Positions 20,100 to 31,697 of a stretch of 64,000 nt of DNA are shown here, piece by piece. The number at the start of each line of letters is the position of its first letter. Position 1 is the stretch's first letter. The stretch lies in the NCBI GenBank assembly GCA_049852185.1, contig CP187540.1. One strand, given 5' to 3'. Position numbers and translations under genes: made by a program. This stretch comes from Methanocaldococcus sp. 28A. Lineage in GTDB: Archaea > AGJL01 > Methanococci > Methanococcales > Methanocaldococcaceae. The notes below the pieces were generated by a model. It did not search any database. It saw only the letters and a program-made list of their open reading frames with translations, and was not told where the DNA came from.

Positions 20100-20201
20100 T
20101 GGATGTAAATAAAATTTACTGTATAGATTGTTTAGAGGGAATGAAAGAATTAAAAGATAAGTCTGTCATAGTTGTTACTTCTCCTTTATAAAATTTAGGT
20201 A
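20100..20201 (+). pseudogene. N-terminal relic of an N4/N6 DNA methyltransferase (beta class)
   Basis: [30 protein letters not shown], a decayed NKIYxxDCLEGMK...VVTSPPY start, cut off by the IS at 20202. Confidence 0.75.
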
Positions 20202-21400
20202 CAGTATCTCCAAACATCATAAAATAAACAGAAAAGTTAATATTTCATAATATTGAATAATATTTGAATAATTATTAAAAAAATAGGGGGAGATGGAACA
20301 ATGAACGACATAAGATTGTTGGCTATAAAATCATTTAACGAATTTAACGAATTCATAAGCAATGTTCTTCAAATTTGTCTAAGGATTTATGAGTTGAGGA
20401 TTATGCAATAGGACTTATAGAGGCAATGTCGAATAACACATACTTAGAGACTGTTAGTAAGCTAAATTATCCATCGGCAGACTCTTACTATCGATATATA
20501 AATAAGGCAGGTAATTCTATGTTTAAAGAAATTTATAAATCTTTTGTTAAAAATATATTCAATGATTTAAAAAAATAATAGAAATTTTTGCCTATCGATA
20601 GATACGCATTATGATGCCTATTATGGTAATAATTTAGATTTAGAATTAATTCACGAATATAGAAAAGAGAGGGGCAGTACTGGTTCGTATAAATATATAG
20701 CTGCTACATTACATACTGAAGATTTTTCGTTAATAATCTATTGTGATATTCTTGTTAAGGAAGATTCGTTGCTTAATCATGTGAAGGAAATTATGGGCTT
20801 TACTATTAACGATTTAGAAATAAATCCATCTAATATTGCAGTACTTACCGATAGAGAGTTTAAAGACTTTGAAATAATAAAAATTTTTGAAAAATACGGA
20901 TGTAATTACATAAGCTTTATTCCGAAAAATGATAAAGTTAAATACTATCTTGAGGAGGAATATAAAAAAGAAGAAAAATGGAAATTCGATTATGTTATCG
21001 ATAAAAATACTATTCCTAAATTAGTTATTGCTGAGGACGAAATAATTACAAACTACAAAAGAAAAAAGGTATATTATACCTTTTTAACTAATATCGACTT
21101 TGAAAATCAAGAATCTTACATAAAAATGTATAAAAAACGATGGAATATTAAAACACGATTTAGAATGCTTAAAGATGCAGTTATAAAAACGAAATCAACC
21201 TCTTTAAAAGTTAGGTTGTTCCTTTTTATGCTTAAATGCGTTATTCATAACTTATGGATTAAAATTCGTAATAAAAAAGAATGTATTTCTTTAAAATTCT
21301 TCATCGTCGAAATATGTAAGTTATTAAATGAGTTCGATTATTCAATCATGGTTATGCGTAATACTCCGTTGTGTATACCTATGCATATTCGTAGATACTG
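20202..21400 (+). mobile_element. ISH3-family insertion sequence, transposase pseudogene
   Basis: TIR CAGTATCT...AGATACTG; frameshifted ORF from ATG 20301 with SIDTHYDAYYG, VLTDREF and KRWNIKTRFR (catalytic E replaced by K). Confidence 0.8.
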
Positions 21401-21415
21401 GTAGACATAACAAGC

Positions 21416-21696
21416 AATGTAATTTTAAATACATTGTTAATAATCTCTGGAGCAATGTTTAATATTTTAGTTATAAAATTATTAAAATTAGAGAAACTAT
21501 TATTGGAAAATAGGTATTTGTTAATGATATATTTAGTAGCTGTAGTTGTTGCTATGAATATATTTGATTAGATAGCTCGACCGATTATCTCTAATTATTT
21601 TAACGTAATTAACTACGTACCATTATCATTTTTTGTTGGGTTTGGAGGAGGAATATTGGTTTCATTCTTTTATTTAATTGCATGGAAAAAATCATA
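21416..21696 (+). pseudogene. Truncated multi-pass membrane protein (possible immunity gene of a lost cassette)
   Basis: VILNTLLIISGAMFNILV...YLLMIYLVAVVVAMNIFD*IARP...PLSFFVGFGGGILVSFFYLIAWKKS*; internal stop, 5' end cut by the IS. Confidence 0.5.
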
Positions 21697-21809
21697 GATG
21701 TTTAATTCACGCGAAATTTTAGAACTATAATGTTCTAATCTCTGCAATTTCATTTTATATAATTTAGTTTTATCCTTAAAAATCAGTATAACAAAAATTC
21801 ATCTTAATT

Positions 21810-21982
21810 GTGAAACCATAAAAAACTTACTATCAATATTAACACTCCTAATTTTCTCAATGGGATTCATATTTGGCTTTATATTCATAAATGACTTTTC
21901 AAAAAACTACAAAGGAGAAGAAATAAATTAAAATTTCTACTTTTATATTACTCCAAAAGTTGCAAATTTAGTTATAAAATAA
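21810..21982 (+). pseudogene. Internally deleted SpoIIM/DUF95 relic 1
   Basis: Encodes FIFINDFSKNYKGEEIN and YITPKVANLVIK*, matching the N- and C-termini of 25699-26256. Confidence 0.82.
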
Positions 21983-22236
21983 ATTTTACTTTTATAAAGT
22001 TTTAGTTATTTTAGAATTATTAAAAATCTTAATTGGCTAATTATTTGTATATTTATGCTTTACTATTTAGTTTAAAATAGTAATATATATATGTGTTTTT
22101 ACATTTATAATTATGAAAAATGTGGAAAATGATATGATATTAAAAAGTATGTTAAATTAAAAAATATTTGGCGATGATGCCCTCTATGGGCGGAGCCAAT
22201 ATTAACGGGCTATATTGAACCACCATAGAAAGGTGG
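21982..22236 (+). repeat. ~255-bp duplicated promoter/5' leader, copy 1
   Basis: Near-identical to 24759-25008; each copy directly precedes a peptide precursor gene. Confidence 0.92.
22168..22236 (+). promoter_or_regulatory. Structured 5' UTR: k-turn, AT hairpin and SD-sequestering hairpin (copy 1)
   Basis: TTGGC-GAT-GA-T-GCCC-TCTAT-GGGC-G-GA-GCCAA fits the k-turn consensus; CCACC-ATAGAAA-GGTGG pairs with the RBS. Confidence 0.65.
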
Positions 22237-22240
22237 CATT

Positions 22241-28991: not shown

Positions 28992-29076
28992 TATATTGAA
29001 ATATTCGTATTTTCTACTTAAGGTCTAATCTCCTCTATTATTTATTTCATCGTCCTTTAAATCTTAATAAATATTT

Positions 29077-29472
29077 ATGGTGAACTACTGAATGATTTAA
29101 TATTAAATCTAGATAAATTTTTCAAAGAGATTGTAACTAAACCAATGAATTTAAAACTTCCTTTAATAATAGTCCTATTATGGTCTTTAGTTAGTTCAGC
29201 TGTTATTTTATAGTTGTGTGCAAAATAAAATAAACTTTTATAATGACAATTACTAATTCCTTACTTTAATTAAGATGCTTTTGCACACAACTATAATTCC
29301 AATGGTATATTTTGAAGGTGTTGAAGATGTCATGTTGTTAATTTTAAAATTTATTATTTTGTTTATAGCTACATTTTTATCTAATACACTAATTTTATTA
29401 ATTATTGCAGGAGTTTCTCATATAATTTTAATAAAATTTTTATTGAATCTTCTAAGTAATGTGGCAAGTTAA
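29077..29472 (+). pseudogene. Second Yip1-family gene, decayed and interrupted by a MITE
   Basis: DLILNLDKFFKEIVTKPMNLKLPLIIVLL aligns with ELILNPNNFFKNLANREISLKEPFIIILI; AVIL-IPMV frame restored by removing the MITE. Confidence 0.7.
29211..29293. mobile_element. 83-bp hairpin-less MITE variant with TA duplication
   Basis: Perfect TIR TAGTTGTGTGCAAAA; same internal deletion as the 13957 copy. Confidence 0.88.
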
Positions 29473-29502
29473 ATTTTTGTAAGATACTATTAGAGGGAAA
29501 GA

Positions 29503-30207
29503 ATGATTAAACTAAAAAATGTAACAAAAATATACAAAATGGGAGATGAGACAATATATGCCCTAAAAAATGTAAATCTAAGAATAAAAAAAGGAGAATT
29601 TGTTTCAATTATGGGGCCTTCTGGAAGTGGAAAATCTACACTTTTAAATATTATTGGTTGTTTGGACAAACCAACAGAAGGAGAAGTTTATATTGATAAT
29701 ATAATGACAAATGACTTAGATGACAATGAATTAACAAAAATTAGGAGAGATAAAATTGGTTTTGTTTTTCAGCAATTTAATTTAATTCCTTTATTAACAG
29801 CTTTAGAAAATGTTGAACTTCCACTAATTTTTAAGTATAGAAATGCTATGAGTGAAGAAGATAGAAAGAAAAGAGCTTTAGAATGTTTAAAAATGGCTGA
29901 GTTAGAGGAGAGATTTGCCAATCACAAACCAAATCAGTTAAGTGGAGGACAACAGCAAAGAGTAGCTATAGCGAGGGCTTTAGCTAATAATCCACCGATT
30001 ATATTGGCAGATGAGCCTACAGGAGCTTTAGATAGTAAGACAGGAGAAAAGATAATGATATTGTTAAAAAAACTAAATGAAAATGGAAAAACCATTGTTG
30101 TTGTAACACATGATATAAACGTTGCAAAATTTGGAGACAGGATAATTTATTTAAAAGATGGAATGATTGAAAAAGAAGAAATATTAAGGGGAGATTATGA
30201 TAAATAA
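29503..30207 (+). CDS. ABC transporter ATP-binding protein, LolD/MacB type (MJ0796-like)
   Basis: GPSGSGKST, LSGGQQQRVAIARAL, ILADEPTGALD, VVTHD. Confidence 0.95.
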   Translation: MIKLKNVTKIYKMGDETIYALKNVNLRIKKGEFVSIMGPSGSGKSTLLNIIGCLDKPTEGEVYIDNIMTNDLDDNELTKIRRDKIGFVFQQFNLIPLLTALENVELPLIFKYRNAMSEEDRKKRALECLKMAELEERFANHKPNQLSGGQQQRVAIARALANNPPIILADEPTGALDSKTGEKIMILLKKLNENGKTIVVVTHDINVAKFGDRIIYLKDGMIEKEEILRGDYDK

Positions 30208-30595
30208 AAATTCAAATTATGACGAAACTAAGTCAGTTATCATAGGGATTTTTATTTTTATTTTAATGCTAATTGTTGTTAAATATCTTATTGAACTCTT
30301 TGTAATTAACTACCTACCAGAATCATCTATAAATTGGGATAATGTAATTTATTCATTTGTATCTCCAATAGGAGTATTTCTTTCTTTTTCATTATCAACA
30401 TACTTTTTTTCGAAAGGTAAAGTTAAAGAGTTTGCAAAATTCACAGTAAAATTTTTTGGGGTATCCTTAATTATAGGGATTATCTTCTTATATCTTTGGA
30501 TATTTTTTAAAAGAGAGATTCCATCAATGGGTGGATATACAATATTAGTTTTAATTTCATACTTAATAACCACCTTTGAAAAGTTAGATAAGTGA
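30197..30595 (+). CDS. Hypothetical 4-TM membrane protein between ABC ATPase and permease
   Basis: Hydrophobic ORF translationally coupled to its neighbours. Confidence 0.7.
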
Positions 30596-30599
30596 GATT

Positions 30600-31697
30600 A
30601 TGTATTTTGAATTAGCAAGGAGAAATTTAAAAAGAAATTTGTTGAGGAGTATTTTAGCTTTATTAGGAATAATTATTGGAGTAGCAGCAATATCTTCCTT
30701 AGGAATATTGGGCGGAGGGTTAAAACAGGGAATTATGGAAAACTTAGGAAGTATATCTAACTATATAATTATTTATCCAAATTATCAAAATGGATACACG
30801 TCTTTTGATAAAAAAGATGTTGAAAAACTAAGAATTTTAAATTGTAAAGTTATTCCAGTTTATGCCACTTCTGATTTTGTTTATATAAAGGGAAAGAATA
30901 AAAAAGCCTATGCAAATGTGTTTGGCATTGATAAAAATGATATAAAATATTTAAATTTAGATGTAAAAGTTTCTGACACCTCTGTTGCTGTTGATACTTT
31001 TTTCTCAAATATAAATGATGTTAATATTGGAAATCAGTTAGAGATTAAAAATATATCATTGAGAATATGTGGAGTTTATAACAGCACATTTCTTTTTCCT
31101 GATAACTCAATAATCTTAACGGCAAAAACATATAAAAGGTTTTATAAAGATGAGAACTATTCAAGAATAATTTTGTATGTTAGAGATATAAATGACATTA
31201 ATAGAATAAAAAATGAAACCGAAAAAATTTTGAATAGGAAAGAGAAAAAATGTATCATAATATCTTTAAATTCCATATTAGAAGCAATTAATAGAGTTAT
31301 AACTAAGGTTTCTTATTTTTTAATGGGTATTGGGGCTATTTCTTTATTAGTTGCAGGTATTGGAATTGGAAATGTTATGTTAATGAGTGTTGTTGAAAGA
31401 ACAAAAGAAATTGGAGTAATGAGAAGTATGGGAGCTTCAAAAAAGGACATTATATTATTGTTTTTATATGAAGCATTAATTTTAGGGATTATTGGTTCTT
31501 TAATAGGAGCATTTTTGAGTTTGTTCTTTGGTTATTTAATTGTTCATTATTTGTTAAAAACATCACTATCTTATTATGTCATCATCTATATGATAATTGG
31601 AGTTATATTTGGAATTTTAACATCTTTAATCTCTGCGTTATATCCTGCATATAAAGCGGCAAATTTAGACCCAATAAAAGCATTAAGAAATGAATAA
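30600..31697 (+). CDS. ABC transporter permease, MacB/FtsX type
   Basis: [57 protein letters not shown]. Confidence 0.93.

Follow-up and report, generated by a model that had tools for sequence, protein, structure and literature searches.

Variable, putatively secreted peptides paired with small membrane proteins in Methanocaldococcus sp. 28A: a candidate bacteriocin-like archaeocin and immunity locus related to circular-bacteriocin clusters

What is the function of a set of short, leader-bearing peptide genes in Methanocaldococcus sp. 28A, each followed by a different small membrane protein and, further downstream, by a SpoIIM/DUF95 protein and an ATP-binding cassette (ABC) transporter? The question is posed by positions 20100-31697 of a 64,000-nucleotide (nt) stretch of contig CP187540.1 (assembly GCA_049852185.1), referred to here as the window, which we studied by sequence comparison and with predicted models. 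An earlier, sequence-only reading of this DNA had proposed a polymorphic archaeocin system resembling circular-bacteriocin loci. To our knowledge, no ribosomal antimicrobial peptide has been characterised from methanogens or hyperthermophilic Euryarchaeota; competition among these organisms at vents is largely obscure, and the locus, small and well delimited, lends itself to testing, with one intact cassette here and up to about six in relatives. We infer, in every part of the argument, that it is a polymorphic, Sec-exported, bacteriocin-like archaeocin/immunity system related to the circular-bacteriocin clusters, and we would put the case for and against this reading in rough balance. The observation beneath it is real and lies far beyond chance.

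All genes between 20.1 and 31.7 kilobases (kb) lie on the + strand of the open reading frame (ORF) map. The peptide cassettes A and B, and the genes that follow cassette B, are given below (lengths in amino acids, aa; TM, transmembrane segments).

21978..22240, + strand: conserved upstream/5' leader region of cassette A, a repeat of 24753-25013 (direct repeats D1, D3 and D4)
22241..22543, + strand: peptide gene A, in which the leader precedes an acidic Gly/Ala-rich core of 68-74 aa, with ATA in place of ATG
22566..22967, + strand: small membrane protein A, cognate to peptide A, with 133 aa and about 4 TM
24753..25013, + strand: conserved region ahead of gene B, including its 5' leader (direct repeats D1, D3 and D4)
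25014..25295, + strand: peptide gene B, intact, 93 aa with an ATG start; a core of 61-67 aa follows the signal-peptide-like leader
25355..25663, + strand: small membrane protein B, cognate to peptide B, with 99-102 aa and about 2 TM
25699..26256, + strand: cassette-type SpoIIM/DUF95 membrane protein (PF01944, E 4.1e-36)
26333..26986, + strand: Yip1-family membrane protein (PF04893, E 2.6e-30)
26988..28517, + strand: large secreted or anchored CARDB-domain protein, surface-layer (S-layer)-like (PF07705, 24.4 bits, cut-off 22.7)
29503..30207, + strand: ABC ATPase of the MacB/LolD type, orthologue of MJ0796 (ABC_tran, E 7e-39; PDB 1f3o, E 8e-135)
30197..30595, + strand: 132-aa membrane protein between ATPase and permease, conserved in relatives
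30600..31697, + strand: MacB-type permease (PF02687, FtsX, E 1e-22; PF12704, MacB_PCD, E 6e-18)

The sequence-only reading had described two short ORFs with a common N-terminal leader and unrelated, acidic cores, and this description holds: the products are 54% identical (21/39) over their first 39 residues (BLASTP E 2e-12), after which no alignment is found, and both cores are Gly/Ala-rich with a hand-counted net charge of about -4 (A) and -3 (B). The membrane proteins that follow, 133 and 102 aa in length, are different, as had also been claimed; they are mutually unrelated, giving no cross-match in tblastn, and neither has a Pfam or NCBIfam match. A feature absent from that reading is a direct repeat of ~260 nt, 88-96% identical, immediately ahead of both peptide genes. 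Cassette B is continued by SpoIIM, Yip1, a 509-aa CARDB-domain protein, the ABC ATPase, the 132-aa membrane protein and the FtsX/MacB_PCD permease, in this order. Pfam bears out the earlier naming of SpoIIM, Yip1, ATPase and permease, and finds a CARDB domain in the protein that had been labelled COG1361.

One line of evidence for a polymorphic system is that the peptide and the membrane protein encoded downstream of it co-vary. Across the genomes compared, the leader is almost invariant and the cores belong to at least ten unrelated families, in agreement with the variability supposed earlier. To describe the pairing, 31 cassettes with a 45-110 aa core and a downstream membrane ORF were compared in 465 pairs (six of 37 leader ORFs were dropped); related genomes are non-independent, and the counts are offered as a description, with no statistical test. 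Cores were at least 40% identical in 20 of the 465 pairs, and the membrane proteins also reached at least 40% in 11 of these 20, as against 0/445 of the pairs with unrelated cores. The nine same-core pairs without a matching membrane protein mostly have weak core similarity (40-44%), with two true core families that have a different or truncated partner. The same pattern holds across family boundaries. Cassette B and a cassette of the relative L032, which belongs to another family, are 83-84% identical in the peptide, 78-79% in the membrane protein (the L032 orthologue, found by tblastn, stands beside a B-type peptide) and 86% in SpoIIM; for a second L032 cassette and one of the relative L035, the corresponding values are 76%, 70% and 89%. 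Cassettes appear, at these identities, to move as whole units across families. The SpoIIM proteins of same-core cassettes are 59-95% identical (at least 79% in 7/9 pairs), compared with a median of 55% for the other pairs. A constant N-terminus, a variable C-terminus and a co-varying cognate gene directly downstream make up the layout of polymorphic toxin/immunity loci.

How far does this arrangement extend beyond the window? Forty genomes of the class were searched, with peptide B and then with a profile of 18 family members, and 16 relatives' regions were fetched and compared by tblastn and ORF maps. The leader occurs in 17/40 genomes, at one to seven places each and 50 places in total, with a patchy distribution (e.g., 0/7 genomes of genus g2). 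In 12 of the 16 relatives' regions, tandem units of peptide, small membrane protein and SpoIIM are followed by one Yip1-CARDB-ABC-FtsX module; the number of units reaches about six in L032, and five peptide genes are present in L031. The CARDB protein is kept at the same position in 12/16 regions (frameshifted or clipped by a contig end in two of them), and the 132-aa membrane protein, which has no family match in Pfam or NCBIfam, is 89% identical in L035 and 40-46% identical in L036, L040 and L041. Linkage of the leader peptides to SpoIIM and the ABC genes, which the sequence-only reading had named as a check, is confirmed for most places: 33 of the 50 lie at most 2.5 kb from a PF01944 match, four lie at 2.6-3.5 kb with a broken SpoIIM, six are on contigs lacking PF01944, and seven are far from any match. 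SpoIIM itself comes in two classes. A housekeeping PF01944 copy scoring about 60-82 bits is found in 39/40 genomes, and a high-scoring class (31 places at 89.6 bits or more) is found in 15/40, 14 of which also have leader matches; the fifteenth has a truncated leader ORF only (L064). In a profile search of 1.84 billion representatives, the peptide family amounted to 48 proteins at E<=0.001, a few of which are giant low-complexity proteins that we take for false matches; a word-indexed search returned 15 family proteins, and every named match is annotated 'hypothetical'. We also observed an AAA+-type ATPase gene of about 340-370 aa between cassettes in L035 (5943-7043), L036 (15711-16874) and L040 (8538-9557), which is absent from the window.

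The link with circular bacteriocins proposed in the sequence-only reading has two parts that fared differently. The resemblance of the loci, the chief finding in favour of that proposal, goes beyond analogy and amounts to homology. When 72,556 plasmids were searched by tblastn with the window SpoIIM, 35 records matched, including 24 from Bacillus, and in the two Bacillus records that were inspected (L094 and L095) SpoIIM lies within a cluster annotated 'uberolysin/carnocyclin family circular bacteriocin'; both precursors pass PF09221 (28.1 and 51.6 bits, cut-off 23.6), and one cluster also holds two Yip1 proteins, a membrane-fusion protein, two ABC ATPases and a permease. Four window proteins match the Bacillus thuringiensis plasmid cluster L094: SpoIIM at 35% identity (E 8e-23), Yip1 at 26% (E 5e-5), the ABC ATPase at 53% (E 2e-85, with the accessory ATPase) and the permease at 30% (E 7e-31). 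In a maximum-likelihood SpoIIM tree of 41 rows, five housekeeping Methanococcales SpoIIMs split with 100/99 support from the cassette and Bacillus-cluster SpoIIMs, in a tree that has two bacterial rows only, chosen by query similarity, long branches, a midpoint root and no sporulation SpoIIM. To judge from these alignments, the locus shares ancestry with the bacterial clusters for head-to-tail cyclised bacteriocins. A profile of SpoIIM had 0 matches in the PDB. Within the cassette SpoIIM alignment (n=18), we noted an invariant P-H-x-I-F-E-I-P motif along with invariant N, G, D, K and E positions; the conserved intramembrane His/Glu pair could be catalytic.

The second part, that the peptides are cyclised, found no support. 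Neither peptide matches a circular-bacteriocin precursor family (PF09221, PF12173, TIGR03651), and the predicted folds of the cores are of low confidence, as described below; we consider head-to-tail cyclisation unlikely. The large 572-aa membrane protein of L094 also has no match among 11 window proteins, no such ORF is present in 20100-31697, and the ATPase tied to it (ABC1) is matched only at a generic level of 31%. Sec export would make a dedicated exporter built from such a membrane protein and ATPase unnecessary.

The case for Sec export comes from the leader, which was inspected in 37 + 14 sequences. It has a K/R-rich start and a 16-residue hydrophobic stretch, then T/E-P-V-A-L-G-D; after the hydrophobic stretch come either V-F-A or P-V-A-L-G as possible cleavage sites. 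The 26-residue leader proposed earlier, cut after V-F-A or L-V-A, remains one option. A cut after A-L-G, with small residues at -3/-1 and Pro at -5, seems at least as likely, because Archaeoglobi leaders have no A-x-A before the Pro and yet keep P-x-A-x-G-D. In Methanococci and Archaeoglobi alike, conservation ends directly past P-x-A-x-G-D, and PVALG would most simply be read as the c-region of a Sec signal peptide. The PVALGD motif, pointed out in the sequence-only reading, is frequent and short of universal (P-x-x-x-G-[DN] in 39/54 distinct small cores). Its role as a dedicated leader-cleavage or cyclisation motif was considered and rejected, since Archaeoglobi keep P-x-A-x-G-D without a preceding A-x-A site, which the c-region of a signal peptide explains better. 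A class III (prepilin-type) signal peptide has G/A/S at -1, preceded by K/R and placed directly ahead of the hydrophobic segment; such a signal is unlikely here, given the K-I/V-F of the second leader type.

Downstream of the leader, 54 distinct small cores were analysed, cut at G|D where the site exists. They have a median length of 70 aa (range 55-80 aa) and a G+A fraction of 0.34; 43 are negatively charged, three neutral and eight positive. Their first 20 residues are hydrophilic and Tyr-rich, and their last 20 are hydrophobic (mean Kyte-Doolittle 1.69) with many small-xxx-small spacings, i.e., glycine-zipper-like, ending in a hydrophobic residue with no charged tail (A in 21, L in 12). AlphaFold2 models of both window cores are all-helical, with four helices, at low confidence (pLDDT 55.5 and 42.1; few orthologues in the alignments), and Foldseek of the better model, still a low-confidence query, gave 0 matches in the PDB. 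Look-alikes in the ESM Atlas were sub-threshold only (best 0.80), with glycine-zipper families as mere leads. A predicted complex between membrane protein B and the peptide B core scored 0.01 in two runs made without controls, which carries no weight on either side of the binding question.

A further element of the cassettes lies in the ~260-nt repeat. We aligned the 300 nt upstream of 36 leader-bearing genes, and evaluated covariation on 26 distinct sequences. Two hairpins can be placed in each 5' leader of the window, as follows (MFE, minimum free energy; K-turn, kink-turn).

22170..22197, + strand: K-turn of gene A, within its 5' leader (exact pattern match, covariation, MFE fold)
24944..24971, + strand: K-turn of gene B, within its 5' leader (exact pattern match, covariation, MFE fold)
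22220..22236, + strand: Shine-Dalgarno-pairing hairpin (CCACC...GGTGG) of gene A (MFE fold)
24994..25008, + strand: Shine-Dalgarno-pairing hairpin of gene B (MFE fold)

The first element reads GGC-GAUGA(U/C)(G/A), a variable stem-loop, and N-GA-GCC, and occurs in 33 of the 36 genes, 54-113 nt before the start codon. Its outer GGC/GCC helix of 3 base pairs is paired in 100% of cells, and its inner helix of 5 base pairs in 96.9%, with two-sided changes in four of the five pairs (C-G, A-U, U-A, G-C); one strand has an invariant G-A-U-G-A and the opposite strand an invariant G-A, which form a GAU bulge with tandem G:A and A:G pairs. The covariation score was reached by 0/500 shuffles, and shifting the partner by 1-3 columns lowered pairing from 91% to 28-48%. 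RNAalifold recovers the same hairpin unaided, and it also appears when single sequences are folded (z -2.9 and -2.5). With a canonical (C) helix, a 3-nt bulge, tandem G:A/A:G pairs and a non-canonical (NC) helix, the element is a K-turn motif. A degenerate K-turn pattern has only two sites in this genome, each before one peptide gene. Across the 40 genomes it has 70 sites, 49 of which lie 1-200 nt upstream of a leader-bearing ORF on the same strand, and 43/50 leader-bearing ORFs have one; the reversed pattern, used as a control, has five sites in all. The K-turn is sometimes duplicated in tandem. Rfam has no family, K-turn included, within 19500-32500. The Shine-Dalgarno hairpin (helix 3) has weaker support, being paired in 80% of cells and absent from the RNAalifold prediction.

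Signal peptide and K-turn travel jointly as a module before different cargoes. For instance, L027 730-1608 (-) and L038 10338-11186 (-) have this leader and K-turn and encode secreted proteins, 282-292 aa long, whose middle is beta-rich and whose hydrophobic end is rich in Gly/Ala; Pfam gave no informative match for them. A small multi-pass membrane protein is encoded downstream of the L027 protein, which is distant from any SpoIIM. Both proteins may be larger cargoes that use one export/regulation module with the peptides.

Variants of the cassette reach other archaea. Archaeoglobi have the same cassette with a different n-region of the leader and share some core and membrane families; their hydrophobic stretch runs into ...A-V-M-P-x-A-x-G-D, which leaves the A-x-G cut as the only option. 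The K-turn was dropped as a general feature of the system, as 0/16 Archaeoglobi-type leaders show it. Contigs of 1.4-3.2 kb carrying Archaeoglobi-type cassette genes under bacterial names of metagenome-assembled genomes (L065, L066, L072 and L085; Arcobacter, Bacteroidales, Desulfurellaceae and Cyclobacteriaceae) are probably mis-binned archaeal contigs. A Methanosarcinales plasmid (Methanomethylovorans, L096) has two near-identical 66-aa hydrophobic ORFs (4841-5041 and 5439-5639) with no obvious signal peptide; a SpoIIM gene follows them directly, and nearby are a divergent Yip1, an ABC pair and a protein whose C-terminus resembles that of the CARDB protein. These ORFs are a possible leaderless or short-leader archaeal counterpart of the circular-bacteriocin precursors.

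In the window, the array is decaying. The remains of cassettes and the elements inserted among them are listed here (IS, insertion sequence).

20769..21404, + strand: fragment of a DDE transposase, an IS remnant on the upstream border of the array (PF01609, E 2.6e-6, profile positions 74-199 only)
21413..21694, + strand: remnant (3' part) of a small membrane-protein gene of the oldest decayed cassette (tblastn, 56% identity)
21800..21978, + strand: SpoIIM pseudogene with the middle deleted, N- and C-terminal pieces remaining (repeats D2, D5 and D7 match the intact SpoIIM)
23082..24080, + strand: IS transposase inserted in cassette A (PF04693, E 2.8e-9; PF01609, E 3.1e-9)
24134..24251, + strand: SpoIIM pseudogene of cassette A, N- and C-terminal ends only (repeats D5, D6 and D7)
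24312..24759, + strand: HicB-like/HicA toxin-antitoxin pair (PF07927, E 3.8e-19; PF15919, E 4.3e-5, below cut-off)
28623..29436, + strand: debris of pseudogenes, after the CARDB gene and before the ATPase gene (tblastn against L036 ORFs)

The sequence 21413-21978, upstream of cassette A, is what is left of a third, older cassette: its membrane-protein remnant matches residues 45-137 of a 141-aa membrane ORF in L032, and its SpoIIM pseudogene is 70-82% identical to SpoIIM N-termini (tblastn). In cassette A, the start codon of the peptide gene was probably lost and the gene is probably inactive, because the codon at 22241 is ATA, the first in-frame ATG/GTG/TTG lies at 22298, within the hydrophobic stretch, and the orthologues (87% identical in L035, 58% in L036) have ATG at the equivalent codon. 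Membrane protein A has homologues after A-type peptides in L035 (90%) and in L036 and L031 (66%). Cassette A also has no intact SpoIIM, the expected place being occupied by an IS transposase and the HicB/HicA pair, which is an insertion outside the peptide system. Of the two cassettes, B still has the full layout with SpoIIM, and A has lost its SpoIIM and probably its start codon. The debris ahead of the ATPase consists of the C-terminal 28 codons of a leader-bearing 190-aa L036 protein (100% over 28 aa) and a frameshifted Yip1-like paralogue (85-89% in two frames); relatives have intact genes here. With one intact cassette (B) among three, the window copy is a poor experimental subject, and relatives with five to seven peptide copies are better ones. 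Just downstream of the locus (window 32855-34177, +) lies a TnpB-type IS200/IS605 element with a 440-aa ORF, recognised by a Cas12f1-like TNB domain (PF07282, E 3e-14) and a weak OrfB_IS605 match.

How might an intact system work? Each cassette would be expressed from its own promoter with its own 5' leader, in which the covariation-supported K-turn, if bound by L7Ae, and the hairpin over the Shine-Dalgarno sequence could gate translation. The pre-peptide would be exported by Sec and cut by signal peptidase after A-L-G or six residues earlier, after V-F-A. The released hydrophobic peptide would then insert, as a bacteriocin-like archaeocin, into membranes of competitors that do not have the matching cassette, and the small membrane protein, whose co-variation with the peptide is observed, would protect the producer specifically. 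SpoIIM may aid maturation, membrane handling or immunity, as is thought for its homologues in circular-bacteriocin clusters, and the Yip1/CARDB/ABC/MacB module may expel the peptide from the producer membrane through the S-layer space, in the manner of accessory ABC transporters and YknWXYZ. In this scheme, Sec would replace the dedicated exporter of the bacterial circular-bacteriocin clusters. A more specific version would make these the first archaeal head-to-tail cyclised peptides, in which a Sec-delivered core, trimmed by signal peptidase, is circularised outside the cytoplasmic membrane by the cassette SpoIIM/DUF95, with gating by L7Ae and the K-turn and self-protection by an MJ0796/MJ0797 pump; we think this version doubtful. 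If it were true, SpoIIM cyclisation would assign the cyclase role for the bacterial circular-bacteriocin clusters as well.

Several points weigh against an archaeocin/immunity system. The toxicity of the peptides and the cognate immunity are what we infer, and the assignment of the signal peptide comes from inspection. Most pore-forming bacteriocins are cationic, and the cores here are acidic. Peptides A and B find no family in Pfam (E<=0.1) or NCBIfam (E<=0.01), and they match no solved structure, phmmer against PDB sequences having given chance-level matches only. The hydrophobic C-terminal 20 residues could be a plain membrane anchor, which would turn the "peptides" into small type-I membrane proteins, subunits of a complex. 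The leader is not dedicated to peptides, because the same leader and K-turn also head proteins of 190-390 aa, which make up most of the leader places far from any SpoIIM; where inspected, such a larger protein again precedes a small membrane protein. The tie between SpoIIM and peptide is loose: SpoIIMs from cassettes whose cores are unrelated can be as much as 96% identical, and the window SpoIIM, which follows peptide B, is 90% identical to the SpoIIM after an A-type peptide in L035. To these may be added the thin bacterial sampling of the SpoIIM tree and a different function already suggested for such cassettes, to which we now turn.

In PMC5898192, a membrane-remodelling or vesicle-forming role is proposed for the cassettes defined by arCOG01996 (DUF95/COG1300), by analogy with SpoIIM in engulfment and Yip1p in vesicles. 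On this account, the locus would encode a membrane-remodelling, vesicle-forming or secretory complex of the producer, with the variable small proteins as fast-evolving structural components; the C-termini of the peptides are predicted membrane helices, and SpoIIM has a housekeeping form in 39/40 genomes. We find it unlikely. The cassettes are patchy (17/40 genomes), present in one to seven copies with unrelated cores, shared whole across families and subject to IS decay, their SpoIIM clade stands apart from the housekeeping one and groups with the bacteriocin-cluster SpoIIMs, and strict pairing of peptide and membrane protein is typical of toxin/immunity systems.

Polymorphism and pairing with a membrane protein would also fit non-lethal self/non-self recognition or signalling, where the small membrane proteins would be receptors of the variable peptides, secreted or anchored at the surface, and the ABC module would export or recycle the signal; the sequence-only reading had allowed for this, and acidic cores, unusual for pore-formers, suit a signal. 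Set against it are the four components homologous to bacteriocin clusters and the small membrane proteins, in which Pfam and NCBIfam recognise no signalling domain; moreover, MacB-type pumps with Yip1 partners are known from peptide-toxin resistance and efflux (PMC4887032). Signalling of this kind strikes us as unlikely too.

A third explanation, membrane-associated antiviral defence with variable components, goes back to Makarova 2014 (PMC4158269), in which arCOG01996 loci are placed in 'dark matter islands' and a novel membrane-associated defence is suggested. The variability and the mobile-element debris fit defence islands; however, PADLOC returned only generic ATPase and permease matches, the locus has no nuclease or other effector, and secreted hydrophobic peptides with an efflux pump suit competition better than an antiviral role, which makes defence improbable. 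Pilin-like or other structural surface subunits cut by prepilin peptidase, to which a K-G-F before the hydrophobic stretch of one leader type lends some likeness (it resembles a class III signal peptide), are highly improbable in view of the other leader type (gene A and most of the window's genus, g1), which has K-I/V-F with no G/A/S at -1, the conserved P-x-A-x-G c-region after the hydrophobic stretch, typical of Sec, the hypervariable cores, and the linkage to SpoIIM and the ABC module in place of pilus assembly genes.

The locus bears on two further questions. One is the role of SpoIIM/DUF95 in circular-bacteriocin biosynthesis, as SpoIIM is here the only conserved enzyme-like partner of each peptide, in a setting from which the dedicated exporter is absent. 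The other is the substrate of MJ0796, which is among the structurally most studied ABC ATPases and is still titled 'hypothetical' or 'uncharacterized' in the PDB.

Compared with known systems, the neighbourhood is not new in itself: as the sequence-only reading had suspected, it was already predicted computationally (PMC4158269, Makarova 2014; PMC5898192, Makarova 2015). The arCOG01996 clusters are described there in Methanococcales (PMC5898192), and as 'variable gene cassettes' in Methanococci, Archaeoglobi and Thermococci (PMC4158269, Extremophiles; PMC5898192, Biochimie). As far as these descriptions go, they concern the same neighbourhood, with DUF95/COG1300 paralogues in cassettes of three to four genes with small diverged membrane proteins, and with Yip1 (arCOG02054), a SalXY-like ABC transporter and S-layer proteins (PMC4158269, PMC5898192); an AAA+ ATPase, such as we see between the cassettes of some relatives, is likewise listed (PMC5898192). 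Relative to the portions of the 2014 and 2015 accounts considered, what is new is the distinction of a signal-peptide-bearing peptide from its partner, their co-variation, the link with circular bacteriocins and the K-turn leader. A literature search, to which the supplementary tables of Makarova and a 2019 archaeocin survey were external, found no text tying these archaeal cassettes to circular bacteriocins, and others may already have drawn the link; a term look-up in two genome-mining surveys (PMC8534725, PMC7132975) gave 0 occurrences of 'archaea'.

The K-turn leader is a new element with a familiar motif. A GAU bulge with tandem G:A/A:G pairs is how L7Ae-binding K-turns in the 5' untranslated regions of archaeal l7ae genes are described (PMC6298567, PMC5539422). 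Here, the same motif precedes secreted-peptide genes as a putative L7Ae target, and about 25-35 nt separate it from the Shine-Dalgarno sequence downstream, whereas in l7ae mRNAs it lies over that sequence. The leader may add a candidate second class of L7Ae-controlled mRNAs.

For the downstream module, the closest functional likeness is YknWXYZ of Bacillus, described as a four-component efflux pump against the endogenous SDP peptide toxin (PMC4887032). Both combine a Yip1-family protein with a MacB-type ATPase and permease, in the Bacillus case for protection from a self-made membrane-active peptide. They differ in that the window Yip1 scores 32.5 bits for YknW_fam against a cut-off of 110, and in that Pfam finds no YknX-type membrane-fusion protein in the window; the module may work like YknWXYZ without being a member of that family.

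The circular-bacteriocin clusters are the closest relatives of the locus as a whole. Such clusters are defined by a precursor, SpoIIM and a transporter, with Yip1 frequent (PMC8659200), and PMC8659200 and PMC13289728 state that no leader-cleavage or cyclisation enzyme has been identified for them. Both kinds of locus place a small hydrophobic Gly/Ala-rich precursor beside SpoIIM/DUF95, Yip1, an accessory ABC ATPase and an FtsX/MacB-type permease. Unlike their bacterial counterparts, the archaeal peptides have no circular-bacteriocin family match and the locus has no counterpart of the 572-aa protein or its ATPase; a CARDB/S-layer-like protein stands where the Bacillus cluster has a membrane-fusion protein, SpoIIM recurs in each cassette where the bacterial cluster has a single copy, the cores are acidic, and the candidate immunity proteins, at 60-190 aa and 2-4 TM, are larger. 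In size, the two are close, with archaeal cores of 55-80 aa against about 61-62 aa matched to PF09221 in Bacillus. In the Bacillus precursor P0056, about 38 residues, Lys-rich at first and then hydrophobic, precede the PF09221 match; a signal-peptide-like leader is therefore not foreign to this class of peptides.

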